Shown here: positions 29,801 through 62,200 of the stretch, piece after piece | Position numbering within the stretch: the first letter of the stretch is position 1 | Layout: each line of letters opens with the position of its first letter | Assembly (NCBI GenBank): GCA_050273025.1 | Contig: CP158635.1 | Coordinates: 3,782,001-3,846,000, forward strand | DNA: 64,000 nucleotides | Direction: 5' to 3' | Source of the DNA: Cenococcum geophilum | Taxonomy: Eukaryota | Position numbers and translations under genes: made by a program | The notes under the pieces: generated by a model | What the model was told of the DNA's origin: nothing | Seen by the model: only the letters and a program-made list of their open reading frames with translations | The model's database searches: none

Positions 29801-29858
29801 TACAGGCTTGCGCGACCCTTTTGCCGTGCTTATGTCTCGATTGACTGAGTCGCTAACA
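23878..29858 (+). mobile_element. Full-length RIP-degraded Ty3/Gypsy chromovirus (G6), related to G5; LTRs 23878-24103 and 29633-29858, TSD ACCCT
   Basis: Two 226-bp direct repeats. ACCCT at 23873-23877 and 29859-29863. PPT GGAGGGGGGGG before the 3' LTR. gag-pol colinear with G5, RT VYLDNIIIYS (~27014). Confidence 0.95.
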
Positions 29859-37840: not shown

Positions 37841-40800
37841 TTAATAGATTCTGCTCCGTCGTCTCACACTCCCGCCAAATGCAGCTAAGCTCTCTGTGTC
37901 TGAGATTCCTTCCCAAGGCAACTCGTCATCTTCACCGCTTTCCCCGTGGCTCTCTTCATCACTACTGCTTTCGCTTTCACTGGGGTGTTCCTCAATTACG
38001 ACTTTCTTTCCCTTCCCCTTAGCCGCTTCCGCAGCATCCATCCGAATGCTCCTTATCGTCTCTTCAACTTCCTCCTCGGTCATGTCTTCAGTCTGTTGTC
38101 CCTCGAGAACATCATACAAGTTGTAGATTTGGTCGCTCTTTACATCGATCGCTTTGACCAAGTCCTCAATCGCGGCTTGGATAGCCTTACGTTTGCGGCG
38201 TCCGAGCGAAGCATCATGTGCCCGAAGCAGAGCATCATGCGTAGATAGTTCGATATGCAGGTGAGCGAGTTCGTCTTCGAGTTCTTTGAGAACAAGTGCC
38301 AGAGCTGTCTTTGGTGATTGGGCAGGACGCATGGTTGCGTCGACATCGTCCGGCATGCGTGAAGAGACTGGGACAAGTTTTGGGATATTGACCAAATCGG
38401 GCCGAGCCTCTCCAGCGGTGCGGCGGCAGACAGTGCAATTGTTGTTGTCGTGGGCGGGAAGCTCGATCTTAGCGCCATGATTGCTAAACGTTTGCCCTCG
38501 CGGGTTAATTGTAATGTCTGGTAGGATAAATGCAGAAGTCATCTCAACTGGTACGCTACGTCGACGGCGACTGGACTGGCTCAGAAGAGAATGGTCTACA
38601 GACTGCTTAGTTTGAGTAGCTTCCGCTGGGACTTCTTCATTTTGGGCATTGTGCTCGGTGGCATTCTCAGTGAGCTCATTCTGTGCCGTCATGATTGACC
38701 TGCCAGTCACATCCCTCATAGATGATTTGCGTGGCAAAGACTGTTGCCGTGAAGCCTTAGCTGATACTGCGGAACGGATAGTATCCTCACGGGCTTGGCG
38801 CTCTATGGTAGATGAAGCTTTCTTACGAGCTGCTGCTCGTTCTTCCTCCAGCAATCTTCTTAGTCTGGTGATTTCATCACCGTTGATGAAGCTGAGCTCC
38901 GTGAGGTCTAGTGCCGGTGGCTCCTCCACAATGGGCTTTCCACTGGCACCGCCATGCATGAGGTAGCGGTCGGTCTTTTGTGCAAGCGAGAGGTCCGTCG
39001 TTGAGTCCGCATCACTGTCTGCATCTCGGTGGTCTTGAACGGCTGCAGGCACTGGAGCAGATGCGCTCCGCATCGGAATGCTAACAGTAGGCAGTGAGTG
39101 TCGCTGTGAGGTTGAATGGAACCTGGAGCTGGAGTAGTGAGATATTGGCTGTTGAGGTCGAGCTGAGACTTGCGCTGCGCTGACAGACCTGCTATTTCGA
39201 ACCTCCTGTTCCACTCTATCGGCAATTCGAGTCTGGGTGTCTTTCTCGCGACGTTGGATGCCCTTCCTCTGAGCGCCATCAACATTTCCTCTAGGAGCCT
39301 CGTTCTCCATTACGGTGTCGTGGTCGGCCAAAGCAGATTGAGACAGAGTCTGAGGCTGGTTGGTCTGTTTCGTGCTTAGAATTTCTCTGGTCATATCCTC
39401 CATTTGCTTGACAACTTCCTCCCGCTTCTCAACCTTTCGACGAAGTTGAGCTTCCTTCCTTGCCCACCTTTGATTTTCGTCTTCTTGTTGTGCGGAGAGT
39501 TGAGCTAACTCCGCTCTGAGATTCTCGTTGTCGTGTCGAAGAACCTCATTCACCTCCTCCTGGGTCATGCCTTGGAATTGACGAATTGTCTCATCCCTCC
39601 TTTCGATTTTGCTTCTGAACTCTGCCTCTCTGTTGGCCCAGCGACGCGCTTCTTCCTCTCTCTTCGCTTTCAAGTTCGCCGTTTGAGCTTTAAGTGCATC
39701 GTTCTCTGTTTTGAGCCTGGAGAACTCGGCCTTTTCTTTCTTAGCTCTCTTGGAGCGGAGCTCAGCTTCTTTTCTTGCCCAATGCTGAGTATCCTCGTCG
39801 TGCTGGGTACGGACTCTGGCTAACTCCATATGTAACGTCTCATTCTCCTTCTGTACGGCATTCTCTGTTTGACTGGCCTTCCGCCGGAGCTGCTGAGTTT
39901 CTTCTTGGAATTGAGCTTGTTCTTGTGATAATTGATTCCGTAGAGACTCGTTTTCTGTGCGAAGGGAATCGATTTCATTGCGTAGTGTCTCATTCTCCGT
40001 CTGGAGTGCTTCCTTCTCGCCTTTCAGTTCCTCAGCATTATAGAATGCAACGCCTAACTGAGTAACCAGATTATCACGTTCTGCAGTAACCCGCTTTGTA
40101 CTGATCTCCGCGACAGACAGCTTGCGCTCAGCACGATCTAATCGGGTTCGCAGCGTGTCTACGGAAGCCTCCAATCCTAGAAATCCATGTTAGCAAGGAA
40201 ACCACACGATCCTGATATTCCACATACTAGTCTTTTCGACTCTCCAATTATTCTTCTCACTGGATCCTTCGCCATCCGTTGATCCTAAGGCGCTATCGCT
40301 CCGCCTCAGTTTCTCTTGTGCTTCGTTTGCTGCTCTAAACTCAATTATCTGTATTTCCTGTTCCTCGATCTTCTTCTCGGACTCGGCTTTTTCCTGTTCC
40401 AATTGTGCAACCTTTTCCTTCAGGAGTTGCAGAGATGCGAAAATTGCTTTCTCATCAGAAGGAATTGGAACACTGTCGATAGGTGTGTGATTCAGTTGGC
40501 GGGCTGGGCCTCGACTTGGATTTAGAGGATTTGTAAATCTCGACCGTGCGCGAGTATTTCGAGAGAAGACAGGAGTGCCATCTTGGAAGACCCCAGACAC
40601 GAGTTCGGTGAGATTTGGAAGGTCTGGTAGCATAAATGACTGCTGTGTTGCATTGCCCGTCATTTGGGATGAACGTGGGGTTCCGTTTGCTCCTCGTTGG
40701 GGGGTTTCGACTGATTTTACAGCATGATCCAAGCCTTGAGCAGATGACTGGCGACTTCTTGGGCCTCCAAAACGAGTATTTTTGGCAGTAAATGTGACAG

Positions 40801-43480: not shown

Positions 43481-45198
43481 TTGTAAGTATACAATCTTTC
43501 TTTCATTGCTACTCCTGCATCTTGTGCGCTAATGAGGTTGATGAGACCAGAAGAAAAGAGAGTAGCACCACGAGTGCATGGAAGAGAAAGGAGTGCACCT
43601 AGAGAAGCTTTAGAATAATCAATTGGAAGAAATAAATGAGAACACAAGCAGCGCGCCCAACGAAGAAGCTCTAAATAATTTTCAAGTCCGTAGAAATACA
43701 GGGTCACAAAGCACCCGGCTGGTTTAAGGCTACAGCTGATTTAAACCTACAGCTCCCCTCTGCCAGTGCTGAGTCATAGCTACCCACCGGTTTACCTATC
43801 CACATACCGGGAATTGTAATCCCCTCATCCATCATGCTGCACATCAGTACCCGCCGTCTCTGTCACGGCACTATCTAACACGCGTGGCATTACCTTCTGT
43901 GGGCTGCTCGGTGCCTCAGTCGCAGTGAGCGGGTGGGACAGCTTCAGAGATAGCGGCAACAGTGCATGTTGGCATGACAATTCTTCGTTCCCGAAGGGTG
44001 CGGTTCGTATTCTTATCGTTGGCGATGTGCGGGAGTTGGATCAAGCATGGCCTCGTATCGAAGCCTACCGGGGAGATCTTGAGTTGCCCCTTATGGTTAT
44101 GGTGATCTTCTTCAGATCTCGGCCATGGCCATATATAGATAGTCTAATCGAACTTTCGCGTCGAATGACGTTTGACGAGCTTGCGACTATCCGCGTACCC
44201 TCAGTAGGTACCGACCCAGATATGAGGGCAGTGTGAGATTTTTATCTGGCCAAGAAATCAAGTCAGCCCTCAATTCTGGTAACGTTTGTGCCCTTAGTAA
44301 GAAAAGAAGAGCAATGGAGAACGCAGTGGAAGCCTTGCAAGGTCGTATCTCGGCCCAGGAAGGGTCATGTCGTTTTACTTCTGAATTTCGATGTACTGCT
44401 GTGGGTAAAGAATCCCCATATGGTGAAAGTAGTCTATCTCGCTTTGCCTAAGACACATGAAAAAGACAGACGCTAATTCGTGGCTCTCCGATTTCCTCCG
44501 CTGTTCTGGAGGGTGAGCGTCGTGATTCCAACTCCGTGGCCTAGGCGAGCATGGGTGAGCGTGGGGGAGCTGAGAGAGCAGCGATAATAAATAAAACTAG
44601 GTAATCCCTCGCCCGAAACGCAATGAATCTCGATGAACTTCATATTTGACCGTGTTTCCTTCATAGTGTTACTTCAAAGCTATGACTTTGCCTATCAGAT
44701 TTTTCTGGTTGTTCAAGTAAACACGGGGTGATCATCCAGACCTAGGACCCCCGTGTTGTTTCACTTCCCCAATGGGGTTTATAGCACACCTGAACAGGAT
44801 TGATTGAGTATCAGATGCTGTCGTGTCATATTATCTTGGAAAGGTTTCAAAAATGCATAGCAGCGTAGCTAGAGGCTCTATGAAGGAGCCTGATTGCTCA
44901 AAAAATTATCTACAAGGTGGTCCATGCATTGGCCCGTGCGCGTCGCCGAGCTGAAGAGACCCCTACAACATGCTCGTTAACTCAGCTCAAAATCTACGCG
45001 TAGTGCCATACTTTTTGGCCCGTTTGACCACACCGCTGATGCCTGGCAGCCTTACATGCATACTTCTCGCCCAAAGACTTTGGTTGACAACGCCTTCGCA
45101 AGGCTGGGATTATTCATTCCTCCGCTTTCCTTCATCTTGATTAAGAACGGACACTCAGCTGCCGCTAAGCCTTTCGTTATTTGAATTAGGGTAGAGGC

Positions 45199-48100
45199 AT
45201 GTATACTAATTCCACGTTGAAAAGACCCCGCCCTCAACCCGAACAATTTACCGTGGGATGGATCTCCGCTCTGCCCGTCGAGCTTACTGCTGCTACAGCA
45301 ATGCTGGATGAAAAATACGATGACAGCGGTTACACCACCCAGTATACGCTGGGGCGCATCGGTGGACACAACGTCGTTATCACCTGCCTGCCAGCCGGTC
45401 AGTATGGCACAAACTCCGCCGCGGTAGCCGCTACTCGGATGCAATCAGAATTCCGCGCTCTCCAAATCGGCCTTATGGTAGGCATTGGAGGGGGGGTTCC
45501 AAGCCCCGAAGTGGATATTCGACTTGGTGATGCGGTGATTAGTCAACCACAAGCGGGCTACGGGGGAGTGGTTCAATATGACTATGGGAAGACTGGATCA
45601 GGGGGACTATGCACACGGACAGGTTATCTTAACGCACCGCCCGATGTCCTCCTTACCGCAATATCTAAGCTACGGTCGAATATAAGTGCAGGCAAAAGCA
45701 ATCCTAAAGTCCACCTATCACCGCTAGCTCACCTCCCAGAATTTGAACGCCGCAACGCAGGTCCAGATACCCTCTTTCAGTCCCCGTATAGTCACATTGA
45801 AGGACCGACATGCGATCGGTGCCGTAAAGATATGGTAGTCGCACGGATCCCGCGGGAAAGCGAAGAGGTAGTCATTCACTATGGCACAATAGCTTCTGGC
45901 AATCAAGTTATAAAGGACGGGCTCACAAGAGACAAGTTGAGCGCCGAGCTTGGGGGTGTTCTTTGCTTCGAGATGGAGGCAGCAGGCCTGATGAACAGCT
46001 TTCCCTGTCTCATCGTCCGTGGTATTTGTGACTATGCTGACTCGCACAAGAACAAGAAGTGGCAGCCATATGCCGCAGCAGTGGCGGCAGCATGTGCGAG
46101 AGAAATCCTGTCAATTATCCCTACAGGCTCTTATTCGAATAATTATGGCACCGAAGTTACTCAGCAACTTGCTATGAATCCCATAGAGTTAAGTCGATCC
46201 AACGGACCAGATAATATCCCTACTGAAAACATAGCTTCGCTATGTGTGAGATCAGTCCTTACAGCAGCTCAACGCGAAAGCTACCTACATTCTTTGAGGT
46301 TCGATCAAATTGATGCTCGTCACGCGACAATCAGAACCGCCCACGCTAAGACATGTAGATGGTTGCTTAGCAAATCTGAGTATCAAGATTGGCTCGACGT
46401 TAGCAAGCTCTCCGATCATCATGGCTTCTTATGGATCAAAGGAAAGCCAGCTACCGGTAAATCGACAATAATGAAGTTCGCCTATACAGACGCCAAGAAA
46501 AAGAAGGCAGACACCGTTGTTATATCGTTCTTTTTCAATGCAAGAGGCGACGAACTTGAGAAGTCGTCTTTAGGAATGTACCGTTCCCTTTTGTTCCAGC
46601 TTCTGGAGCAGCTTCCAGACCTTCAGGACGTGTTTGACTCCTTACGACCATCAAGGCCAATCAACAGTGACCCTTATAGATGGGATATCGAAATTATTCA
46701 GAGGCTTTTCGAGCATGCGATTAAAAGGATCGGGCAGCACTGCGTGACCTGCTTTGTTGATGCTCTAGATGAATGCGACGAGGATCAAGTGCGAGAGATG
46801 GTGTCATTCTTTGAACAACTAGGGCAACTTGCAATTTCGTCCCAACTTCGATTGCTTGTCTGCTTCTCGAGTCGCCACTACCCACACATTACTATCGAAA
46901 AAGGCATCCAACTAATTTTGGAAGGGCAGGAGGGTCATCAGCAGGATATAGCCAATTATTTGCGCAGCGAGCTAAAAATTGGACGTAGCAAGTTGGCCGA
47001 GCAAATTAAGGCCGAGATACTCGAGAGAGCATCTGGAATTTTTCTATGGGTCGTCCTCGTTATACAGATGCTTAGTAAAGAATATGACCGTGGCCGCATA
47101 CACGCACTTAGGAAGCGGCTTGATGAGATCCCAAACGGATTGGATGAGTTGTTTAAAGATATCTTAACAAGAGACGGCCAGAATATAGAGGAGCTAATTC
47201 TTTGTCTCCAATGCATACTGTATGCAAAGCGGCCTTTCAAGCGTGAAGAGCTCTACTTCGCTGTATTAGCAGGAGTCGCACCTGAGGCGCTGACTGCATG
47301 GACCTCCGAAGAGATTACAGAACAGGACATGGAAAGATTTATTCTAAGTTCCTCGAAGGGACTCGCAGAGTTAACAAAGTCTAAGAATCAAACCGTTCAA
47401 TTCATTCACGAGTCGGTGCGGGATTTTCTCCTTAAAGGAAACGGCCTTGACAGGCTTCGTTCTGACCTTAGAAGTAACTTCTCGGGTCTAAGCCACGAAC
47501 GGCTAAAGCAATGCTGTCAAAACTACATGACGATTGATACTTCCGAGCAACTGGATTTAGTAACACCACTTCCAATTGCATCTTCTGAGGATGCTGCGGT
47601 TCTTCGCCGACAGGCATCTAAAATGTTTCCTTTTCTCGAATATGCAGTACGGAATGTGCTCTATCACGCCGATACTGCACAGGGGCACAGAATCTCGCAA
47701 GATAGGTTTGTTGAAATTTTCCCTCTTCAAAAGTGGATCACCCTAGACAATCTCTTTGAAAGGTATCAGATACGCCGCCATACGTCTGATGCGAGTCTTT
47801 TATATATCCTTGCGGAGAAAAACTTGCCAAACCTCATTTCAATCGAACTAAAACGTGTTCCGCACATGGATATCGAGGGGGAACGCTACAGCTATCCGTT
47901 ACATGCGGCTCTAGCTCACGCGAATGAAAATGCTGTAAGAGCACTTTTAGCCCCAAGCTCTGACCACGACATACTACATGAGCAATCACTCCGTCCTACC
48001 GCCAGAGAACATGAGGAAGTAGTCGAATACTTCATTAGTAAAAGACACGATATCCGTTCCGGGAAGGGCCGGCGTATATTCCCAAAGTCAGTAGAGCGCG

Positions 48101-49398
48101 ACCTTGCACTTTTAAAAGTTCTGCTCGCAACTAGGAAAGTTAACACCAACGCTCAAACTTATTTAAGACGGTTACTGCTGTCGTTGGCGGCAGAAAATGG
48201 GCATGAGGTGATAGTTAAGCTTCTGCTCGCGGACGGCGTCGACATAAACTTCAAGGATTCTACACAGGGACGGACGCCGCTATCATGGGCAGCAGGGAAT
48301 GGACTCGAGGCCATAGTCAAGCTACTGGTTGAGCGGAGCGATATCGAGGCCGACTCAAAGGATAATATGGGTCAAACGCCACTGTCATGGGTGGCAGAGA
48401 GAGGGCACGAGGCCGTAGTTAAGCTACTGGTTGAGCGGAGCGATGTCGAGGCCGACTCAAAGGATAATATGGGTCGAACGCCACTGTCACAGGCGGCGGG
48501 GAACGGGCATGGGGCCGTGGTTGGGCTACTGGTTGAGCGGAGCGATGTCCGGGCCGACTCAAAGGATGCGTGGGGTCAAACGCCACTGTCACTGGCGGCA
48601 GGAAACGGGCATGAGGCCGTAGTTAAACTACTGGTTGAGCAGAGTGATGTCGAGGCCGACTCAAAGGATAATATGGGTCGAACGCCACTGTCATGGGTGG
48701 CAGAGAGAGGGCACGAGGCCGTAGTTAAGCTACTGGTTGAGCGGAGCGATGTCGAGGCCGACTCAAAGGATACGTGGAGTCAAACGCCACTATCACTGGC
48801 GGCAGGGAACGGGCATGAGGCCGTAGTTAAGCTACTGATTGAGCGGAGCGATTTCGAGGCCGACTCAAAGGATAATATGGGTCGAACGCCACTATCACTG
48901 GCGGCAGGGAACGGGCATGAGGCCGTAGTTAAGCTACTGATTGAGCGGAGCGATTTCGAGGCCGACTCAAAGGATAATATGGGTCGAACGCCACTATCAT
49001 GGGCAGCAAGGAACGGGCACGAGGCCGTAGTTAGGCTACTAGTCGAGCGGAGTGACGTTGAGGCCGACTCAAAGGATAATAACGGTCGAACACCGCTATC
49101 ATGGGCTGCAGATAAAGGGCATGAGGCCGTAGTTAAGCTACTGGTTGAGCGGAGCGATGCCGAGGCCGACTCAAAGAATACATATAGTCAAACGCCACTG
49201 TCATGGGCGGCAAGGAACGGGCATGAGGCCGTAGTTAAGCTACTGGTTGAGCGGAGCGATGTCAAGGCTGACTTGAAGGATAATTGGGGTCAAACGCCAC
49301 TGTCACTGGCGGCAGAGAACGGGCATAAGGCCATAGTTAAGCTACTACTTGCCGAAGGAGTTGACACGGACTCCAAGGACAGATATGGTCGGATGTAA
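45199..49398 (+). CDS. Fungal NLR-like protein: PNP_UDP phosphorylase - NACHT - ankyrin repeats, 1399 aa, 3'-truncated by an LTR insertion
   Basis: N-terminal FTVGWISALPVE, GLMVGIGGGVP, FEMEAAGL and IVRGICDYADSHKNKKWQ (PNP_UDP). P-loop GKPATGKST (46441-46467) and Walker B CFVDALDEC. Twelve tandem ankyrin repeats (TPLSxAAxNGHEAVVKLL) from ~48175. Confidence 0.95.
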   Translation: MYTNSTLKRPRPQPEQFTVGWISALPVELTAATAMLDEKYDDSGYTTQYTLGRIGGHNVVITCLPAGQYGTNSAAVAATRMQSEFRALQIGLMVGIGGGVPSPEVDIRLGDAVISQPQAGYGGVVQYDYGKTGSGGLCTRTGYLNAPPDVLLTAISKLRSNISAGKSNPKVHLSPLAHLPEFERRNAGPDTLFQSPYSHIEGPTCDRCRKDMVVARIPRESEEVVIHYGTIASGNQVIKDGLTRDKLSAELGGVLCFEMEAAGLMNSFPCLIVRGICDYADSHKNKKWQPYAAAVAAACAREILSIIPTGSYSNNYGTEVTQQLAMNPIELSRSNGPDNIPTENIASLCVRSVLTAAQRESYLHSLRFDQIDARHATIRTAHAKTCRWLLSKSEYQDWLDVSKLSDHHGFLWIKGKPATGKSTIMKFAYTDAKKKKADTVVISFFFNARGDELEKSSLGMYRSLLFQLLEQLPDLQDVFDSLRPSRPINSDPYRWDIEIIQRLFEHAIKRIGQHCVTCFVDALDECDEDQVREMVSFFEQLGQLAISSQLRLLVCFSSRHYPHITIEKGIQLILEGQEGHQQDIANYLRSELKIGRSKLAEQIKAEILERASGIFLWVVLVIQMLSKEYDRGRIHALRKRLDEIPNGLDELFKDILTRDGQNIEELILCLQCILYAKRPFKREELYFAVLAGVAPEALTAWTSEEITEQDMERFILSSSKGLAELTKSKNQTVQFIHESVRDFLLKGNGLDRLRSDLRSNFSGLSHERLKQCCQNYMTIDTSEQLDLVTPLPIASSEDAAVLRRQASKMFPFLEYAVRNVLYHADTAQGHRISQDRFVEIFPLQKWITLDNLFERYQIRRHTSDASLLYILAEKNLPNLISIELKRVPHMDIEGERYSYPLHAALAHANENAVRALLAPSSDHDILHEQSLRPTAREHEEVVEYFISKRHDIRSGKGRRIFPKSVERDLALLKVLLATRKVNTNAQTYLRRLLLSLAAENGHEVIVKLLLADGVDINFKDSTQGRTPLSWAAGNGLEAIVKLLVERSDIEADSKDNMGQTPLSWVAERGHEAVVKLLVERSDVEADSKDNMGRTPLSQAAGNGHGAVVGLLVERSDVRADSKDAWGQTPLSLAAGNGHEAVVKLLVEQSDVEADSKDNMGRTPLSWVAERGHEAVVKLLVERSDVEADSKDTWSQTPLSLAAGNGHEAVVKLLIERSDFEADSKDNMGRTPLSLAAGNGHEAVVKLLIERSDFEADSKDNMGRTPLSWAARNGHEAVVRLLVERSDVEADSKDNNGRTPLSWAADKGHEAVVKLLVERSDAEADSKNTYSQTPLSWAARNGHEAVVKLLVERSDVKADLKDNWGQTPLSLAAENGHKAIVKLLLAEGVDTDSKDRYGRM
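48175..49393 (+). repeat. Array of 102-bp (34-aa) ankyrin repeat units with high internal DNA identity
   Basis: GAGGCCGACTCAAAGGAT...ACGCCACT recurs with a 102-bp period. 48783-48999 holds two identical consecutive units. Confidence 0.95.
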
Positions 49399-49926
49399 CG
49401 GAACCTTATAGCAAGGACTACGATGGGCTCGTTATTAGGCTAGGTGTGTAGGTGATACAAATTAAAGTCAATAACGTAATAATAATTGGTGGAGTGGTTG
49501 CCCAATAGATTAACTCTAATTATATTCTAAGAATTACTATAAGGAAGGAACTATCTAGGTAGGGATTAAGGGTCCTTAAATATATAACCGTACTCCTATA
49601 AAATCCTTCTTATACATAATATATATATACTCTATTTACTCTATTATAGATTATATAGATTATATAGATTATATAAATTACGTTATATAATCTTAGTTAC
49701 TATTCCTTATTATATAGCTCTATTAGCTCTATTTTAGACTATGCCTATATTAATTAACTAGCTTCTTTTAACTTTTCCCTAAGTAGTTATAATATTATAC
49801 TTAAAGCGTTTATAATACCATCTCCCTCCTCTCTATTTTTATCTTTAAAGATTCTTAATATCTCTAAGTTATTTACTAGAGGTATAATGTCTATTTAATT
49901 AATTTAGTTAATATTATTACTTATTA

Positions 49927-50038
49927 GGGCTTCATGAAATCGGCCTCTGCACCTCCACGCGGTGGAGCCCGGGAACCTGGCAGTACTATTGATGTTCCGT
50001 TAGGATCGTGTCAATAGACTACCAGAGCAAACGCAGAG
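49927..50038 (+). ncRNA. HDV-like self-cleaving ribozyme (predicted)
   Basis: P1 GGGCTTC 49927-33 / GGAGCCC 49964-70. P2 CTCTGC 49945-50 / GCAGAG 50033-38. P3 ACC/GGT closing L3 TCCACGC. GG 49971-72 is available for P1.1. P4 hairpin 49977-50025. J4/2 AGCAAAC contains candidate catalytic C50028. Confidence 0.85.
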
Positions 50039-50931
50039 ACGTCCGTACGGCTGCGCACCGCTGGCGCTGCGACGGGTGATTGCGAAGAAAGAAGTTTCTG
50101 TTGGGAGGGTGAGCCCTAATAAGGCCTTAGGAACACGACCAACTCGTCTTTACATACGGTCGACCTACTCGAATCACGGCATCTAAATTGGCGTCCTCCT
50201 TCTATATAGCATGGTACGCTATACTACACGACCCTATATAGTATATACGTACGCCTTGCAGGCTAAAGCCCGTAATAAGCCTCTTTATCTACCTACCTTC
50301 TAAAAGCCTCTCGTCCATTGCCTTTTAAGGCCTCTTATCTACCCGCCTTTATTATTACTTAATAGCTTAGACCTGCCGCACGCGGTATATATCCTCCTTT
50401 GTGTTATAAAGGACCTAGGTTAGGGCCCTAGGAAAAGACACCTAGCACTAATTACTATCCCGTTATTTTAGTTTTAAAAAAGGTTATATAGGACTAGATA
50501 TAAATGCATTATATAGGAGGGCAGTAGATTATACTAAAAGGTATAATAATAAGATTGGATTATGCTATAAGTAGGGAAGCTATAAGTAGCATATATGTAT
50601 GCATACAGGGCGGAGTAGAGAAAGGGCAGGTATATAATTCCATATAGGCAACAACAAATAGGGAAAGTGGTTTAAAAGGTAGATAGGGCAAGACAGGCAT
50701 TTAAGACACCTTCTTTAGGGGTCTCTAAGCAGTAACCTAACGGTGTTTTTTCCCCCGTTAATGTAGTACGAATGCTATCTGGAAGTATTACCTCTTACAT
50801 TTCCCTTAGGGGTTTTTTGTTTACCTAAAAAATGGGTTTTTCTCAGTATATATATTAAGTTTTTACTATAGGAATTAGTCTACGTGGACCTATTAGGGGG
50901 ACTAGGTCGGACGGTAAATTAAATTTATTAT
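49927..50931 (+). mobile_element. ~1.0 kb non-autonomous non-LTR (SINE-like) retroelement with a ribozyme head and LINE-like tail
   Basis: Flanked by TATTATTACTTATTA (49912-49926 and 50932-50946). The empty site is visible in the paralogous LTR element near 63215-63229. The 3' end resembles the LINE 3' ends in this window and finishes in (TTA)n. No ORF of 60 aa or more in the track. Confidence 0.85.
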
Positions 50932-53653
50932 TATTATTACTTATTATACCTAAAGCAATTTCTTTTTTAACTACTCGTCGTGTCTATACTATTACTGCGA
51001 TATTGTCTCTTAATAAGATTATATTATCTCTATATTCTCGTTACTTAAAAGAGGGGTTAGTTTACGTTATATTAGTAAACCTGTCTTCGCGATAACTATC
51101 CTCTTACTTAAAGTGTACTAAAGCGAATATTTATTTATCCTATAATGTTTGCTCCGTCTTTAATACTAAATATATATAACCTATTACTCTTAATAGTTAT
51201 CTAGTTTCTTAATTAATTTATCTTAGGGTTTTATATTTAATCTACTGCTACACAGCTAGATAATAAACTGTCTATTACTTTAGCGAAGTTATGCCGTTTT
51301 TATAATACTAAATAAGAGGCTGCTAAAGCTTAGTAAAGAGCCCTTAATTCTCGCCTTACTACATCCACTTAGTTAATCCGTCTTAAAAAGGTCTGTAAGA
51401 AGGTTTATTTTAAGGAGTAGAAACTTATAGAATAAGGTTTATAGGAACTTAATAATAAAAAAACGAATTTTTTTCTTATTAAGAAGGAAATAGATCTAAG
51501 TAGTTTAGCAACTACTCTTCTTAGGTCCCCCTTAGGTAACTTATTTTTTAGCAATCCTTTTTTATTAATACTACCTAACCTAATCTCTTCTAATACTCCT
51601 ATACCTTTCCTATAGTATTCCTTAAATTCTCTAGTAGTTCCTAGGTAGTTTTATTATAGCCTATCTACTTAACCTTATACTATATTTTATTATTAATATC
51701 TTTATAACTAATAATCTTTAAAACTTACTATTTATCTTCTTCCTATCCTTTCTACGTGTCTACTTTATAGATTAATGGCTTAATATTTCTATATACTAGC
51801 TTTAGCATTATAATATACTATATAGGGTAGATCTTTATTTTAGCTAGTAGGTTTAACTTAAATATAACTAATAAAATCTTCTATATAATTTTAAAAGGTC
51901 CTAGTCTAACATAATCTAACTTTTTACTTAGTTATTAACTCTTAAAATTTTTATATAGTAGCTATACTTTATCTCCCTCCTTAAGATCTAATCCCTTAGA
52001 TCTCTTAGCATTATAGTACCTTTTTATTTTCTCTTATACTGTTTTTATTAATTCTATAAGGTCTATATAAAGATTTATTAACGTCTTTATTCTTTCCTTA
52101 GCTATACTACTTATCTTCTTTACTTACTATAGTAATAATAATATTCTTGGCTTATATCCGTAATTTGCCTTAAATAGTAATATACCTATCCCTTTTTAAG
52201 GTATTATATTATATGCAAACTATATAACTAGTAATAATAATACCCAATTATTTTACGCGTAATTAATATAGTATTTTAGGTACTACTCTAGTATCTAATT
52301 TAATCTTTCTGTTTAACCGTCTATCTGCGGATAATATATAGTAAAAGTTACTACTCTTACTCCTTATTCCGCTAAGAATACCTCCTAAAATACTACTATA
52401 AATCTTAGATCTCTATCTAATATAATCTTGCTTAGTACTCTATATCTTATAAATACTTCTTTAATATAGATTTTAGCAATATCTTCTACTAATATTTCTT
52501 CTATATATACTATAAAGTATCCCTACTTTATAAGCTTATCTACTATTACTAAGATTATATTATAATCTTATCTGGTAATAAAATCTCTTAACTTTAGTAA
52601 CTTAATAATAAAGTTTTATAATATAACCTCTTATAGTCTTTCTAGTATCTTAATAAGTTATAGCCCTCTATATAGTTTATACCTTATTAGTTTATTTCTT
52701 TAGCAATTTAAATATTCTTTTATAACTTTTTACGCTAAGCCTTAGATTCTATTAATAATATACTTCTCCTAGAGTCTTAACACTAAGCTTATAGCTCTAT
52801 TATATCCTTAAGTTAATCCCTTATAGAAATCTTCCATAAATTATTCTGCTATGCTTTTTAAGATATACTTTACTTCTTAATTTTTATATATATCTATTTA
52901 TAGATCTTTTAGCTATACTTTTAGAATCCTTTATACCTAAAAGCTCCCTAGTAACTTATAAACTTTTTCTAGTTCTTTTTAAGTTGCTATAATCTTTAGA
53001 TAATTATATCTAATTACTCCGTCTATATCTTTTTATAGTAAAGCCCCTAATAGCCTTTTATTATTTTACAGTTTAGCCCTTTAGCTTAAAGTATTTGCTT
53101 ATATATTATCTATACCTTTAGTATACTAAATTTTAAAATAGTATTCTATAAGTATCTCTGCCCATTTAACCTATCTTTAGTTAAGTTTCTTTATTATTAA
53201 GAATCCTATTAGGTTCTTATAATCCGTCTTAACTATAAATAGTTTCTCTATACCTTATAAGAATGCTCTCTATTTTTTTAGTACTATAACTATACTTAAT
53301 AACTCCTTATTATAGATATTGTAGTTTAACTCTAGTGGTATTATCTTCTAACTATAGTATGCCACTAGGTGCTATCTATCTTAATATTTTTATATAAAGT
53401 ATACCCCTAGTATAAAGTCTAATATATCCGTTTCTATAACTATTTCTAGTCCTAGTTAATAAATCTTAAGAACTAGCTCCTGGGTAAATAACTCTTTAAC
53501 TTTTTTTAATAACTTTTACTATTCCTTTCCCTATGCCTATAGTTCTTCTTTCTTTATTAATCGCGTAAATGGTTTAATATCCTTTAACTATTGCGCTATA
53601 AACCTTCTATAGTAATTATAAAACCCTAAAAATAATCTTAACTATATAACGTT

Positions 53654-56600
53654 GTCTACTAACGAAAGCGCAGCGGGATCTAATATATATACTCTTATAC
53701 TAATTATATAATATATTAAGAATCTATTTAAAAGGAGCTCTTGCTGCACCCGGCCCAAAAAGACCAAAACCAACCAAAAGAACCCTGAAAAACACCTAGA
53801 GAATCCCCCTGAGATACATGCATTGCAGGGGAGGCACACGTCTAACGACGGTGGCTCGCACTCGCGCGCGACCGCTAGAACTACGCCTAGTAATGGCCCT
53901 CCATAACAAAGACGGGCGAATACTACACTATAAAGCGGAAATACCTCTATTAAGAAGGCATCTAACAAAATATAAAGCTTATTGGACGCGTCTAGTATCT
54001 AAAATTGTGGGGGAGTAACTGTTAGCTATAACGAACTAATATAGCTAGTAGAATAGCTCCGCCAGTCTAGCGAACCTTAGGCGCCCCTTTAGTAAACCCT
54101 TAATTAAATCCTTTAACGGCTAAGCAAAATTAAAAATAAGTATAACCCCCCTTTACCGGCGAACCGCACCTGGGCCGCTATAGCTATACTTTTATAGTAT
54201 AGGGAACTTACCCCCCTTAAGTTAATAACCGGGTATATAATTATAATATAACCAAATATAGAACAAGTAGAGGGGCTTAGGGGATAATTAGAAATAGAAG
54301 TTCTTATAGAGATACGTAAAGAGGTCTATAATATTATTATAGTCCAATACCTTAAGAGCGGAGACATTAGAGTTACCTTAAAGGACTAATAGGTAAAGGA
54401 ACGAGCTGTAAAGGCAGGGGATAGGCTAGGAGAACGTATTAGCATAAAAGTACTCCGTAAGGATTACTCAGTTAAAGTCCTAGCGGTTCCTATAAGCCTT
54501 AGGGTAGAAAAGGGACGCTAGGCAGATAATATAGCAATTATATAGGAGATAGTAAGATAAACGGAACGCCTTATACTAGGACTCGAAATTACCCAAATCT
54601 AATGGCTTTAATAGGAAAATATAAACTAAGCATATAATAAGAATAATAAGAGGATATAAGGGTCGCTAAAGACTTGCTAGGGAGACGCTAGACGAACGCA
54701 TAGCTTCCTTATTATTAGTATATATACACTAGGAATGCAAAAACTTCTTATCTAAAAAGGAATAATTATAAATGGCCTTATATATAACATAAGGCTCTAT
54801 AATTATAGACTACGCCTAAAATAATGCTATCGCTATATATAATGGGGACACACCTAATCTATATGCGCAGTATAGGTATACTACGGCCACTATGCAGGCC
54901 CCCATAATATAAGATATTACTTAAATTAAGACTAAACAAAATGCGCGAACTGCTACTAAAGCACATATAAGGCGTGGGAGAGAGAAGACTGCATTAAATA
55001 TAGGAGACGGAAGGCAAGGGCTTAACAGCTGCGGGAATAACTATACGCTAGGTTATACGAATGGAAACAATAGGCGATAAGCTAGGGGGATATAGGCGCC
55101 TTCCTAGCGTTTCCTACCTTTAATACTAGAGGGCTAGGCCAGCCATCCCAAGCCTTAACGGGCTAGAAGCGACGCTGTGCGATATTACTAAACCGATTAG
55201 GGACATAAGGGTTATAGGGGACATAAGGGAGAGAATGCCCCGTAGGAAGACCCCTATAGACAGTAATAGTAGGCTTAAGACTAGGATAATTAAGAATTAG
55301 ACTTAATGCGGCAAATATAATATTTATAGCCGACCTATAAAGGGTATATAGCCAATTAGTAAGAATAGGGGAAGAACCGGTAATAATAATAGATTTAGAT
55401 ATAGAAGCGCTAATAGGAATATAAGATATGGAAATGGAAAGCTTTATACAAAATAAGTAGTAACTAGGGTATAGATATAAGAGATAGAAGCTCTAAATAT
55501 CCTAAAGAAAGTAGAAATAGAAGAAGTAAGGAATAAAAGAAAGTTAAAGGACCCTTACTAGGGGTCCGCCACCTATCTATTATATAGTATAACTGCGGCA
55601 ATATAAACCACCGCCTTATAAGGCCCCTACTAGACAGTCTAGACCTAGAGAAATATTATATCCTTGCTATATAAGAACCGTATTATAATACCTTTATATA
55701 ATTAATATACTGCCCCTAAGGATTCTAGCTCCTATATAAACTAAAAGCAGCTATACGCGTGTGCTTTATAATTAGTAAGGCTATTAGCCTGTTCTTATAG
55801 TTATAGTAGGTAGTTAACCTAAATATTATAGTTATAATAATCTAAACATATAGGGGACCGGTATAAATTATTAATGTATATAACCCTAGGGTTAAAGGGG
55901 TCCTATAAATAGAGAATATTATATCGGTAATAAGCTTACTAGAAACTAAAGGTATAGAGTTTATTCTACTAGGAGACATAAACCTCTACTACCCGCAGTA
56001 GGGGGGTATCTATATTACTGTAGATTAACAGTTAGAGTGCCTACTAAGAGCTATAGATATCTAGGACCTTAAGCTAGCTACCCCCCTAAGAGTAATTATA
56101 TGGTAATGAGGCACCGCTAGAAGTATAATTGACCTTATATTTATAGATGAAGGCCTATACTAGAGACTTAAAAGGTATAACCCCAAAGAAGAATGGGCAC
56201 TTACCCTAGACTATATCCCTATCTAGATATAGCTAGACCTAAATACTAAAGCGTAATTAAATAGAAAAAGATACGCAATAAGGAAGCTTAAGATAGATAG
56301 TTTCCTTAATATAGTTAAACAATAACTCTAAAACCTAAAAGAAATCCACCTAATACCAAATGAGTAAGGCTTATTGGCTACCCCTAAGGAAATCAACTGA
56401 AGACTAGAAAGGATCTAGGTAGCGATTAAAAATAGGCTAAAAAAGTACTGCCTAATCTTAAAACTAGGCCCCTACGCGCGATATGTATAGTCTATATAAT
56501 ACGTAGTTCTAGTTACTAGCTAATAATAAGCAAGAAGGAAATATATAAGTAGCTATAACCCTAAAGACAAGAGACGATATAAAGATATAAGAAACCAGCT

Positions 56601-59269
56601 AAAGAATACCCTAAAAAAAGAAGTAAGGAATAACTGGAGACGGTTTATAAACGAGTATACTTTTAACCTAAGCCTCCCCCATAATAAGGGCCTTTAGGCT
56701 ATAGCAAAATAGGTAAAGAAAAAGGCAGGGCGCCTAGCAGAAGACCTATACCTACTACCCCTATAAAGAGTAGGAGAATTATAGGCTATAAATAATAATA
56801 ATAAGAAGGCAAAGATCCTTACAGAAAGGTTCTTCCCCTAACTAGCTCTAGTAGACCTTAGTAATATTACGGGCAAAACACCGGTGACTTGCCTGTAGGT
56901 TAATAGCGACATAATAACAGAGGAAATGGCTAGAACTATTAGCCGCCTTTTAAATAATATAGCACTAGGACTAGATGGGATTCTAAATAAGGCCCTAAAA
57001 ACCTATAGGCTACTTATAGCACCTTAGCTTATAGATATAGCCAGAGCATACTTTGCTATAGGCTACTACCCGCAATTTAGAAGATCTATAATAATAGTTG
57101 TTCTATAAAAAGAAGGTAAAGCAGATTACTTAATCCTAGAAAGCTACCGCCCTATTACCTTAGAAAACACCTTTAGCAAGATCTTAGAAAGGGTAATAGC
57201 GAAATATATAGCAGATACGGTAGAGGAATATACCTTACTACTATAAAGCTAAATAGGGGTAAGAAAGAACCGCTTAACACTATTAGTACTTACGCTACTC
57301 ACTACCACTATTAAATCTGTATAGGCGATGTGAAAGGACTTTATAGTATTAATGCTTAGCCTAGACATTAGTAGTGCCTATAATAATATACCCCACGAGC
57401 GTCTCCTATATATCCTTAGGGCAAAGGGCTTCCTAAAATAGATTATATAATTTGTCTAAGGGTTTATAGGCCAGAAAGAAATATTACTAGTCTTTAGCGG
57501 ATACTAGAGCCCCCCTATTGTAATTACAATAGGAATACTATAAGGATTACCCCTCTCGCCTATACTCTTCTTTTTCTTTATAAGCAACCTACTTAACTCT
57601 TTTAAAAAAGGGGCAACCTAGGGGATAGGCTTTATTAACAATATAAACCTAATTATATACGGGCCAATAGCCGCAGAGAATTGCAGAACACTAGAGAAAG
57701 CCTATAACACTTATATAAAATAGGCAAAACGTTATAAAGTCTAATTCTTACCAGAGAAATACCAGCTAATCTATTTTATAAGAAAACGTAACTAATCTGC
57801 AGATCTCTAGCATATAATTCGTATTTAAGGCTTTAGGGGTTAACCAGTTTAGGGCCTAAGGGTATTAGGAGTATAGGTAGACAGTAAGCTCTAGTGGAGC
57901 GTATATGCGGCGTAAGCGGCCTATAAAGGCTAAGTATAGTTTATCGCTTTATCCAGGATTGTTAATTCTATATAGGGTCTATACTTCTAGAGGTTACGCC
58001 TACTATATATAGCAGTCGTCTGGCCAACTATAACATATAAATCTAGTATTTGGGCTATTAGAGAAACTAAAAAGGGCCCCCCTAAATTACTCCTTAAACC
58101 ACTTTAAAAGGTCTAGATAGCCTACCTTTAGAGTATTACAGGCGGGTATAAGCGAACGGCCACAGCACTGCTTAAGAAGGAATCTAATATTCCCCCCCTA
58201 TAGTTATATATTAAAGCCGCTGTAATATAAAGGACGTAAAATAAACACAACTCTAATATTATAAAGTATATTAAGACACGCTTAAGTAAACTATGGAGGG
58301 ATTCTAGGGTGTTCTGTAGGAGAATAAACCAACAACCCTAAAGTAGGGAAGAGATATTAGAGAAACAGGTAAAGAAAGCAGAAGAAGAATAGGGCCGCTT
58401 TAGGGCCCAGGCCTATATAGAGGAGGAAGGGAGACACGTAAGAGGTTAGTAAAGACAGCAAGATAGAGAAAGGAGCTAAAGTAGAACACGTAAGAACGCT
58501 AGGAAACCATCTACCGCAATACAATACTGGTTGGACTAACGCTGGAGAGGTAAATGGGAGTCAAAGGTATAGAGGCTAATTTAGGCAAGATGAATCTAAG
58601 CTATAGCATAGTTAACGCTATAGGGGGTAAATACCTAAGGGCTTTAAGAAGGCCTAATAAAGGCAGAAAATATAATAGTAACACTTTTAAGAACAGGAAT
58701 AATAGGACTAAAAGATTGGCTTTACTAGGTGGGTATTCTAGTAGGTAGCCTAAGATATAAATGTGGCTGGCTAAGACAGATACCAAAACACGTAATACTG
58801 CTATACCCCCTACGCACCAATTAAGAAATAATGCTCTTAGTAGCTAGTATAGAGAACTATAATATACTACTCTTAACATAAAAAGGCCTTAAGGCGGTTA
58901 CCCAGTGGCTTATTAGTTAAAATGTGCTAAATTAGTTCCGGGTTGTAAGGGAAATAGTAATAAAAGGCAAGGGGGCGAGCAGCAGGTGCCCCCTAGTAAC
59001 TCTATAGTAGTAAAGTAATAGTTTATAATACTAGCGCGTCCGTAGGCTTATTACGGCAGTAGTGGTTCCTAAGGAGGTTAAATAGTAAGGTAGTAGAGCA
59101 CCATAGGCGACTTATAGGCGCTAAGTAGGCGAGTCCTAAAAGGCGGGGAGATGGATTACGGGGTTTTCTCATTTTTCTTAAATAGAGTTTTCTCCCTATA
59201 TATAAATAAGAAGTAGTCCGCGTAGGCCTAATAGGGATCCAAATCGGACGTTAAGCAATGAATTATTAT
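53654..59269 (+). mobile_element. Tad1-like LINE, copy B, apparently full length (~5.6 kb), RIP-degraded, TSD TATATAACGTT
   Basis: TATATAACGTT at 53643-53653 and 59270-59280. ORF1 from ATG 53818 with CCHC relics (~54825-54970). ORF2 ~55450-59010 with endonuclease and RT relics. (ATT)n tail. Colinear with copy A. Confidence 0.93.
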
Positions 59270-62200
59270 TATATAACGTTCTCTAGTTCTTACCAATTTA
59301 CTATAGCCTTAATTTTCTTTAGATCTATACTAAGTTAGCCTAGTTTAATAATAAATCTAATAAAATTGGTCTTCTTAGTAAAGAACTCGTATTTTTTAAT
59401 TGCTACTAGCATCTATTCTTCCTATAATCTCTTTAAAACCCATTTAATATATTCTCCGTATTCTTCCTTAGTTATTAAGTAGATAATAATATTATTAAGG
59501 TATACCATAATAAATTTATCTAAGTGTTCTCCTAATATATTGTTAATACGCTTTTAGAATATTACTAGTGCGTTTATAAGCCCGAATTGCATAACTAATA
59601 GCTTATATAGTCCTTCCTTTAACCTAAAGGCTACCTTTTATTTATTGCCTTCCTTAATCCTAATTTAATAGTACGCCTATCTTAGATCTATCTTTATAAA
59701 GATTTATATATTGCCTATCTAATTCTAGATTTCGCTAATTAAGGGTAAAGGATACCTATCCTTCCTAGTAATACTATTTAACTGTCTATAGTTAATATAC
59801 AGCCTTAGTTTACCGTTTTTCTTTAGTATAAATAGTACTAGATAACCCGCTAATGACTATAATAGTCTAATATATCCCTTTTATAGATTTTCTTAGATAA
59901 ACTCTTTTAGGGCTCTACCTTCTTTTTTAGTAAGGTTATAAATTAGAAAGAACCTTAAACTTATTTTTAGTTCTAATTCTATTTTATAGTCCTACGCTAT
60001 ATACTTTAATAGCTTTTTACTTTCTAGTAACTATAGTTTTTTACCGTACTTATAGTATCTCTTTAGTATATAACTTAAGCCTCGCTTAGTCTCTTTATAT
60101 ATTGCTTTAGCTTAGTACTATATTAACTTAGTTTATTATCGCATCTTATGGTATTAAGTATCCCTAATATTAACCTAACCTATAATCTAATTAATCCTTA
60201 AATTATATTCCTATAACTAAGGCATGCCTAATACTACCTTATCCCGTCCTAATAGTAGGATATTAAAAGACATCTTAATTTATCTTCCTTTAATGGTTAA
60301 TTAAATAGGTCCTATTTTAAGATTAATAATCCCTCCTTTATAGGCTATTAGATTTCCTAAAATTGTAACTAATAGGTAAGGTTATTCCTTCTATCTATGC
60401 GGTAATCCTATTCTCTTAACTACTGCTAATAAGATATGGTTTTATATTACTCTACTATCTATTAGTACTTCGAACTGCTAATCTTACCACTTAACTTATA
60501 AATTTAGGTGTTATCCTTAAATTCCTTTAAGGGTTTAAGGCTCTACTACTAGTTCCCTTTGGTCCCGTAGGCCTCTACTTTTCCTAACTATTAGCTACTT
60601 AATCTTATTACACTTAGCTCGCTCTTTAGCTAGTATTTAGTTCGTTTTTTATCTTTAATATGCTATAGATACGTATTCTCTAGGTATTCCTACTACTATC
60701 GTCTATCTAGGCATTTTTCTATAAGGAATCTTCCTAGCTAAAGTATTAAGTCCCCTTAGCTTTGCACTTCTACTAGGTGCTAACTATATATATACTTAGC
60801 GTTTCTATATTTCGCCTTATCTAATAACTAATGCATTCTTACTGGATATTTTTAGTTCTAATTCTTTAGTGTTCTATATATGTTATATATATTATCTATA
60901 TATACAATTTATGCTAATATATAATATGCTAGGTGTTTTAGGTTAACTCTTAGCTTATCTTTATTCTTAAGTTTAAACCTTTTTTATATTAATCTAAGCG
61001 TTATAACTTTATTTGCAGGTACTATAATTTACCTCTTACTTCTCTAGTCCTCTAATTACTCCTCTAAATCTTTTAACGTCATAATTAAGGCTCCTTTAAT
61101 ATAACTTATAGCCTTTTTTATAATCGGGTGGTCCTAAATAGCTTTTTCATCTAACCATATATAAAAATCTTCCCACTTATTGTTATGCCTCTGCCTATAC
61201 TACTTTTAGTATAGCTGCTAAAGTGTATATAGCTCGTCTATAAGGAAGTATTTTCTCATTACTATATTGTAATAGCCCTTTATATATCGTTCTTTAAACC
61301 TAGTTAGAATCTCTAGATCCTCTTCTTATTCCAGTTTAGTAAGCTACTTAGCTCTTAGTGTGCCTACCCTAGGCCTATTAGTAATTTAGCGTATAGGTAC
61401 TTTACCCCTTATACGTCCTAGTATGCTAAATCTCTTATCTAGTTTCTATTCTTGCTATAAGGTAATTCTTACTTTAAATTCCTCTATAGTTTCTTTCTTT
61501 TTGCGTCTTATAAGTAGATCCTTAAAGTTCTCTTACTTCTTAATCTTGCTATTAGTTCTCCAATCTTTAGGTTAAATACTATATTCTCTTAGTAAGTCTT
61601 TTAGGTCTATATATCTGTCTCCTAGTCTAATTACTATTTAAATTGCAGATTCTCTATTCTATAAAGAGATTTCTTACCTCTTATTTATAGGTGCCTTTAT
61701 TTATACTCCAAATTCTTAGTTCCTTAGATTTTTTAATCCTAAGCCTACTTCTAACTTAAGCTTAGCTCCTACCTTAGTCTAACTAGGCTTAAGTATTCTT
61801 ATTTTGTCTTAAGAATCTTAAATCTTACTTATCTTATCTTAAGAATCTTATACCTATAGGAAACTCTATCCCAAGCTTATTTATATATCTTTAAACTAAG
61901 CTACTACTCTACTCTATTAGTTTTTATCCGTTATAGGTCCTTAAGCTTACCTTACCTTATCTTAAAAATCTTAGTCGTCTTATATCTCGTCTTAAGAATC
62001 TTAAGCTTTTAGCCTTTTGCCTTTATTAAGTGCTAAAGTAGTTCGCTACTTTATTTCTTTTACGTCTTATAAAGCAATAGACATTATATCTAGTGGGGTC
62101 TTAATCCCTACTAATATTCCCTATTCTATAGTGGAATTATCCTCTGCCTCTTATATAATATCTCTAAGGTCTATATACTTCTAATAAGCTGCCTTTATTA

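Follow-up and report, generated by a model that had tools for sequence, protein, structure and literature searches.

We describe a 1006-bp insert in the genome of Cenococcum geophilum that we interpret, with a probability of about 0.78, as a copy of a large family of non-coding retroposons of a filamentous ascomycete. Members of this family (0.73–1.07 kb) would begin with a ribozyme and depend on a long interspersed nuclear element (LINE) for their mobility, and the copy in question has been mildly mutated by repeat-induced point mutation (RIP). It occupies positions 49927–50932 on the forward strand of a 64,000-nt stretch (the window in what follows; GenBank assembly GCA_050273025.1, contig CP158635.1, positions 3,782,001 to 3,846,000). 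Sequence comparison establishes a predicted fold of the hepatitis delta virus (HDV) type, its covariation across the family and the coincidence of DNA 5' ends with the predicted cleavage site. The DNA copies themselves start at the G of that site (G1) and carry target-site duplications of 11–16 bp.

The insert, recognized by reading the sequence and by comparing the window with itself, is flanked by two identical copies of ATTATTACTTATTA (49913–49926 and 50933–50946). The length of this target-site duplication is 14 bp, or 15 bp counting the preceding T, because its edge merges with the (TTA)n tail of the element. Both flanks belong to a RIP-mutated repeat that is present twice in the window, and they align with its second copy at 88.9 per cent (49396–49926 with 62699–63229) and 84.8 per cent (50917–51714 with 63200–64000); the differences among the repeat copies are mostly transitions. 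In the second copy the target site is empty, and an uninterrupted ATTGTTGCTTATTA, with two transitions, stands at 63216–63229. An earlier note on this DNA had described an insert of ~1005 bp with a ~15-bp duplication and an empty paralogous site at ~63215–63229. Both descriptions are borne out, and the empty form also occurs in DNA sequencing runs, with eighteen contig ends in run X1, fourteen in run X6 and one joint from 49926 to 50992. The inserted copy is mildly RIP-mutated, with a GC content of 0.42 and sixty-three private C>T or G>A changes, forty of them in CpA/TpG context.

The first 112 nt of the insert (49927–50038, forward strand) can be drawn as an HDV-like ribozyme with predicted cleavage 5' of G49927. 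The helices follow in the order P1-P2-P3-P3'-P1'-P1.1'-P4-P4'-P2', which matches the nested double pseudoknot of HDV-like ribozymes. P1 pairs 49927–49933 with 49964–49970 (element positions 1–7, GGGCUUC, with 38–44, GGAGCCC), P2 pairs 49945–49950 with 50033–50038 (19–24, CUCUGC, with 107–112, GCAGAG), and P3 pairs 49951–49953 with 49961–49963 (25–27, ACC, with 35–37, GGU). Loop L3 (49954–49960; 28–34, UCCACGC) contributes C29 and C30 (49955–49956) to P1.1, where they face G45 and G46 (49971–49972). P4 is a long helix (49977–49992 with 50011–50025; 51–66 with 85–99) that is also present in the minimum free energy (MFE) fold. The joining segment J4/2 (50026–50032; 100–106, AGCAAAC) holds a candidate catalytic cytosine at 50028 (element position 102), assigned by its position relative to an alignment with the Rfam family drz-agam-1. 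HDV-type ribozymes cut just before the first nucleotide of P1, so that the cut predicted here would fall at base 1 of the insert. A descriptor made up of P1 (7 bp), P3 (3 bp), the 7-nt L3, P1.1, P2 and a C in J4/2 matches the window once, at 49927, where ~0.02 matches are expected per shuffled window (six core and two full matches in 100 block-shuffled windows, both strands).

We scanned metagenome contigs with a pattern of twenty-one specified bases, in which P3, L3 and the P1.1 partner were fixed and the 3' strand of P1 was left free. This gave at least 120 matches, at least 119 of which belong to the family; the family counts in this text rest on the matches listed. The match L112 was considered as a member and rejected as a GC-rich chance match. 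Homology among the loci starts at GGGCU(U/C)N; the A/T-rich sequence immediately before it is unrelated from locus to locus, with at least 94 per cent A/T at positions -12 to -10. The upstream 12-mers are all different (116/116 testable), and the 5' G is present in 104 of the 117 evaluable copies. The same 117 heads form all seven P1 pairs in seventy-five cases, six in thirty-five, five in six and three in one. Combining head and tail profiles yielded at least twenty-four complete elements of 733–1063 bp, and nine of twenty-one head-tail pairs tested for duplications have distinct ones of 11–16 bp. The family proposed in the earlier note, with the distinct duplications and shared 5' G that it asked to be counted, is supported. 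The insert is single-copy within the window, and the possibility raised in the note that it is single-copy altogether can be set aside, as it is multi-copy outside the window in both DNA runs and metagenome contigs.

Family members differ mainly in their interior. Nine listed loci are full-length relatives of the window copy (L051 at 93 per cent, L054 at 91 per cent and seven at 78–81 per cent), and many others match it only at element positions 1–190 and ~700–1006. Beyond the ribozyme the conserved head extends over 50039–50116, to about element position 190, and most subfamilies align over 1–190. A variable body follows (50117–50623), which is replaced or shortened in other subfamilies, and then a conserved tail module (50624–50918) that includes four T5–T6 runs (50746–50751, 50813–50818, 50837–50841 and 50860–50864) upstream of the tail end; all of these features lie on the forward strand. 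Head, body and tail behave as modules, with a common head, one of two tail types and differing bodies.

Part of the insert was found in twenty run rows from fifteen studies; among them are two organism labels that are fungal, as well as metagenomes of roots, soil and fungus. Four runs were compared with the insert at a likeness of at least 85 per cent. In the DNA run X1, summed contig depth, which is not equivalent to copy number, is ~2,000–7,000 over the body, 26,000–30,000 at 49955–50056 and 9,000–34,000 at 50720–50923. This run contains one perfect contig (depth 76), and one variant is carried by up to forty-six distinct contigs; many variant copies exist. For comparison, the host repeat of the insert (49396–49926 and 50933–51714) is extremely abundant in X1, with a summed contig depth of ~1.1 million against the 76 of the single perfect insert contig. 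The stranded RNA run X21 gives zero depth both upstream of the 49904 bin and after 50924, and at the peak bin ~864 first mates map to the minus strand against eleven others. These reads would represent sense RNA, because minus-strand first mates mean sense in most stranded libraries.

For an analysis of covariation we aligned eighty-five distinct heads (the 120 loci minus thirty that were too short and minus L112, with duplicates merged). The proposed pairs are formed in 92.2 per cent of cells, compared with 29–44 per cent in slid controls. Eighteen pairs change on both sides (four in P1, three in P2 and eleven in P4), as opposed to 4–10 in the controls, and 110 cells do so against 8–35. None of 500 shuffles reached any of the observed covariation measures. 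The column of C50028 is at least 90 per cent conserved, and the exceptions noticed are C>T changes in copies that look RIP-mutated. The G1-C44 pair at the cleavage site is present in 59 of 85 heads as aligned and replaced by G-U in three, with the remainder due in part to rows misaligned at their 5' ends. C24, between CUCUG and ACC, has G107 as a possible partner, but no covariation is seen for this pair; the AGUA opposite GA in P4 of the window copy is not conserved in the family. Two divergent copies, L033 and L092, have a rebuilt P1 (GCCCCAU/AUGGGGC) and P2 (CGUCGC/GCGACG), and their mutual homology stops exactly at the new G1. RIP cannot explain these changes, because they are of the transversion type, and in this subfamily the element boundary as aligned moves with P1. 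The ribozyme head proposed in the earlier note is thereby supported by the predicted fold with its cleavage site at base 1, by the descriptor and by covariation in P1, P2 and P4.

One subfamily carries additional sequence at its 5' end. In L022, L067, L084 and the second copy in L048 (~849–2003), ~235 nt of shared, conserved sequence precedes the head and begins near G(G/A)AAAGGAACACC. The 5' strand of P1 is replaced by CGACUC(C/U) in these copies, leaving five of seven pairs. Two of the extended units have their own duplications at their outer ends (ATATATACCCTATA in L022 and TAATTAAAATATA in L048), and contigs of run X12 show the same junction. The module holds a long inverted repeat (CGAGAUCC...GGAUCUCG), and part of it is also found at L056:1–113. 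Rfam returned nothing meaningful for the module, and ARAGORN found no tRNA in L022, L067 or L084. Judging from these sequences, we infer that the subfamily is a lineage that no longer cleaves and so carries its upstream sequence along.

Several results weigh against a ribozyme-headed, LINE-dependent family. The sole Rfam match in 49700–51200 at E<=10 is drz-agam-1 (HDV-like; 49928–50008, E=1.9), which at 17.6 bits is well under the gathering score of 37; no match at gathering level was found anywhere in the window, and twenty family loci searched at E<=1 gave no match to an HDV family. Such models cannot encode the pseudoknot. MFE folding, a method that does not score pseudoknots, was no better than shuffles for the head (z = -0.81) or the tail (z = +0.86). 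The descriptor was composed after the sequence was seen, and its shuffle control is therefore weaker than it appears. P3, L3 and P1.1 are invariant in all eighty-five heads and carry no information, since the search pattern fixed them, and some of the double changes from G-C to A-U could come from RIP acting as both C>T and G>A. Nine of the twenty-one tested head-tail pairs have no duplication and three have only a 6-bp match. In X21, 1694 of 2788 reads are less than 90 per cent alike and 81 per cent run on into unlike sequence, so that they come from related copies, from another strain or species label; the three pile-ups of read starts listed, out of five, are at 50317, 50339 and 50577, and none of those listed is at 49927. 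As noted above, contig depth does not equal copy number. Finally, no LINE with a tail identical to that of the family was seen, the LINE tail in the window being moderately similar.

Some of these points would suit an alternative in which the conserved 5' fold is not an active ribozyme and is instead kept as an internal promoter, a protein-binding element or a stability element, with the common 5' G marking the start of transcription. The sub-threshold Rfam score agrees with it. A promoter role is also conceivable because the first 77 nt of L1Tc are both promoter and ribozyme (PMC3383444, PMC3185411). We nevertheless consider this reading very unlikely. The covariation preserves a specific HDV-type pseudoknot, which goes beyond conservation of mere sequence, and in L033 and L092 the DNA 5' boundary follows a P1 rebuilt at a shifted position. 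In addition, the subfamily with the degenerate P1 (5/7 pairs) carries its ~235 nt of extra 5' sequence and its own duplications, as failed cleavage would give, and HDV variants from fungi whose cleavage site has a C-G pair do cut in vitro (PMC5640933).

The resemblance of the head to drz-Agam-1 (RF01787) is partial. The two have in common P3 and L3 (ACC UCCNCGN GGU), the 3' strand of P1, the GG of P1.1 and a G1-C pair at the cleavage site. They differ in that P4 is much longer in the window head and that the downstream partner of P2 is not the segment paired with it in the covariance model alignment.

The family is non-coding. The earlier note had seen no sizeable open reading frame (ORF) in the insert, and its longest stop-to-stop frame is indeed only 60 aa. 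Across twenty-two family elements the longest frames are 67–185 aa. These cross the ribozyme and overlap one another in several frames, and the two that were compared with Pfam matched no family. With no coding capacity, a 3' end homologous to that of LINEs, duplications and many independent insertions, the family has the properties of a LINE-dependent non-autonomous retroposon.

Ascomycetes also carry short interspersed nuclear elements (SINEs) with heads of the RNA polymerase III (Pol III) type, which are short, non-coding, LINE-dependent retroposons with tRNA-related heads. The fungal family differs from these in that Rfam finds no tRNA-related head at E<=10; within 49700–51200 the same search detected no tRNA, 5S or 7SL, in agreement with the earlier note, which had recognized neither a tRNA nor a 5S head. 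The element is for this reason best called SINE-like and not a SINE in the strict sense, lacking as it does a Pol III head derived from tRNA, 5S or 7SL. It might still be a conventional Pol III SINE whose head is an unrecognized small-RNA gene, given that its size and LINE-like tail are SINE-like and that the extended subfamily carries an extra ~235-nt 5' module. T5–T6 runs terminate Pol III, and the four such runs upstream of the tail should stop it before the tail is reached. Combined with the lack of a Pol III-type head, of any tRNA by ARAGORN in L022, L067 and L084 and of any Rfam match in the 5' module, these runs make the conventional SINE hardly credible. The missing head and the T5–T6 runs also make transcription by Pol III unlikely, in keeping with the Pol III-independent element supposed in the earlier note.

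At its other end the insert resembles LINEs. A 3' stem-loop that it shares with the LINE tails described below (50878–50912, forward strand) consists of a 5-bp outer stem (50878–50882 with 50908–50912) and a 3-bp hairpin (50889–50891 with 50897–50899). It is followed by a terminal A/T-rich stretch with a short (TTA)n microsatellite end (50919–50932, forward strand); across the family this microsatellite varies in length and may be (TTA)n, (ATT)n or (TA)n. We searched both strands of the window with an nhmmer profile of eighteen family tails. It recovered the insert's own tail (50824–50926, E=3e-29) and matched elsewhere only two LINE 3' ends, at 59160–59254 (E=1.6e-7) and 22851–22935 (E=3.5e-7). 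An alignment of twenty-nine tails of both types with three LINE copies, from which the mis-extracted rows L015 and L069 had been dropped, shows the stem-loop paired in 96.1 per cent of cells, compared with 24–67 per cent in slid controls, and three of its pairs change on both sides. In the window copy a G>A change at 50882 breaks one pair of the outer stem. The likeness to LINE 3' ends pointed out in the earlier note is thus greater than chance by the tail profile and includes a stem-loop in common. The tail of the in-window LINE is ~70 per cent like that of the family, and this LINE has no detectable ribozyme, which fits the suggestion that the partner LINE may belong to a related family.

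The second tail type was found in L002, L029, L074, L034, L068 and L042, where the copies end in ...GACGTTAA(A/G)CAAGAA.... It ends ...CAGACGUUAAACAAGAAUCAAUAAUA and is closer than the tail of the window copy to the LINE end ...CGGACGUUAAGCAAUGAAUUAUUA, which suggests either tail exchange between subfamilies or different partner LINEs.

The LINE itself, a putative Tad1-type element according to the earlier note, is present in the window as two RIP-damaged copies on the forward strand, in which RVT_1, read with X at stop codons, was the only domain detected. Copy B (53772–59273; RVT_1 E=9e-14) has the 3' end that resembles the family tail at 59160–59273. Copy A is split into a 5' half (11548–14873) and a 3' half (20766–22953, with its tail at 22851–22953) by a 5.9-kb element (14874–20765) with terminal direct repeats of ~220 bp (14877–15099 and 20547–20769, 92 per cent); a relative lies at 23947–29498 (80 per cent). 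The same LINE family recurs in the metagenome loci L079 and L069, and fragments of at least one other LINE family, with 25–33 per cent protein identity to ORF2 of copy B, were seen at L034:9004–10050 (-), L022:3816–4691 (+) and L026:4679–5020 (-). The LINE starts at the same base in three of three copies. Neither Rfam (E<=10) nor the descriptor, the latter applied to copy A, copy B and a merged sequence with RIP reversed, found an HDV-like fold at this 5' end.

These data bear on a further alternative, that the family is a short internally deleted element (SIDE) derived from an unsampled autonomous LINE with the same ribozyme head and tail. The mechanism would be the same, and both ends would come from one parent. 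The R2 SIDEs and NARTc arose in this way (PMC3414825, PMC3185411), and our sample of 120 listed pattern matches amounts to 378 kb. The depth of head and tail in X1, several times that of the window copy's body, means moreover that other carriers of both ends exist. This extra depth is explained by the many subfamilies with different bodies. Nineteen listed loci extend at least 2.5 kb downstream of the head, and none of them has a LINE there by blastn with LINE copy B or by ORF search; the eight ORFs of at least 300 aa in the 378 kb include no reverse transcriptase. A tblastn search with LINE ORF2 found only unrelated neighbouring fragments, none continuous with a head, although a rare or heavily RIP-mutated parent could be missed. 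One candidate, L056, has an ORF2 C-terminus on the strand of the head, 4.6 kb farther downstream. It was rejected as a ribozyme-headed LINE, since the element there turned out to lack its 3' part and to adjoin another copy in inverted orientation. Read from the head (835–1650), this locus contains two family copies arranged tail to tail, and the first is cut short at its 3' end by the start of the inverted second. Furthermore, a related tail was seen in just one LINE family, whose three copies share their first base and have no HDV-like fold there, and the body of the element has no similarity to the in-window LINE. We regard the internally deleted element as unlikely. The earlier note had called for an autonomous LINE sharing the head, the tail or both; the in-window LINE has related 3' ends, and no such LINE with the head is present among the listed loci.

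If the insert is a member of a ribozyme-headed, LINE-dependent family, its mobility can be pictured in four steps. The element would be transcribed within a longer read-through transcript or from another promoter, and the HDV-like ribozyme in its first ~112 nt would then cut 5' of G1 and set the RNA's 5' end. The 3' stem-loop and (TTA)n tail would recruit the reverse transcriptase of the co-resident LINE or a close relative, as the homology of the tails suggests, and a LINE belonging to this 3'-end family would use the (UUA)n tail for priming. Target-primed reverse transcription at A/T-rich sites, with copying over the full length, would complete the cycle.

Comparable elements have been described in insects and trypanosomatids. 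The R2 SIDEs of Drosophila are non-coding; they start with an HDV-like ribozyme and finish with the 3' end of a LINE, which serves target-primed reverse transcription. In R2/R1 hybrid SIDEs one element's ribozyme is combined with the tail of another LINE, and the duplications are the 14-bp ones of that LINE (Eickbush & Eickbush 2012, PMC3414825). The fungal family resembles the former in its lack of coding sequence, ribozyme head and LINE-type tail, and the latter in that the head is absent from the tail-donor LINE. Unlike the R2 SIDEs, which are rare, sit in rDNA units and are recent products of deletion or recombination, it is dispersed (116/116 distinct listed flanks) and abundant, and it includes subfamilies with different bodies and two tail types. 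The trypanosomatid elements NARTc/L1Tc, RIME/ingi and SIDER are present in high copy number, and an HDV-like ribozyme with cleavage at +1 occupies their first ~77 nt (PMC3185411, PMC4035085). They too include high-copy non-autonomous retroposons with a ribozyme at the 5' end; the difference is that their autonomous LINE has this head too, with an additional role as a promoter, and that the listed fungal loci include no headed LINE.

HDV-type ribozymes are already known from fungi. Li and Breaker (2017) reported 230 HDV ribozyme variants in twenty-six species of Pezizomycotina, with many copies per genome (PMC5640933). Three features mark these variants: the cleavage site has a C-G pair, P2 and P3 are separated by one additional nucleotide, most often C, and P4 contains an E-loop. 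Two representatives cleave in vitro (PMC5640933). The window head has the predicted HDV-type fold and the C-G pair (here G1-C44), and its C24 could correspond to the extra nucleotide, though pairing of C24 with G107 is also possible. In a comparison by published description, the E-loop was not recognized in P4. The authors describe 'widely variable gene associations', and the word stem 'transpos' is absent from their text (PMC5640933). A search of part of the literature found no report linking fungal HDV-type ribozymes to retroposons. The author of the earlier note knew of no such family from fungi, and this holds for the link to retroposons within that partial search; the ribozymes as such had been described (PMC5640933).

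The family likely gives the fungal HDV variants a job. Ribozymes that cleave in vitro and had no function assigned to them would gain a concrete and testable role in processing the 5' ends of a high-copy retroposon, and ribozyme-headed non-autonomous retroposons would extend from insects and trypanosomatids to fungi. A wider proposal, which we put forward tentatively and with some doubt, is that the HDV variants of the twenty-six ascomycete species are generally the 5' heads of an unrecognized class of LINE-dependent retroposons. The ribozyme would take the place of a SINE's Pol III head and travel independently of the mobilizing LINE, combining with various bodies and with LINE-type tails of at least two kinds, and loss of P1 pairing would give rise to subfamilies extended at the 5' end. 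These repeats of ~1 kb may go unclassified in fungal assemblies rich in transposable elements because they have neither an ORF nor a Pol III head, and the head and tail profiles offer a means of finding them during annotation.

The family also supplies natural variants for tests of the fold, including the rebuilt P1 and P2, a minimal P4 and the degenerate-P1 subfamily with its 5' extension. The head variant at L100:223–354 (-), in which the P4 hairpin is very short and a G1-U wobble stands at the cleavage site, is possibly a minimal natural version of the ribozyme. In another locus, L073:1318–2823 (+), an open frame of 502 aa with no Pfam match overlaps the ribozyme head by ~100 nt, and an insertion may have interrupted a host gene here.

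The surroundings of the insert are fungal. An intact gene at 45190–49398 (+) encodes a 1402-aa fungal NOD-like receptor (NLR) with a PNP_UDP phosphorylase-like domain, a NACHT/NPHP3_N domain and ankyrin repeats, the last corresponding to ~102-bp tandem repeats at 48174–49388. This gene ends at the edge of the insert's RIP-mutated host repeat, and its stop codon lies 529 bp upstream of the insert on the same strand. A gene for a PPC89/Cep57 protein is found at 37844–40189, and one related metagenome locus contains a gene with a HET domain.

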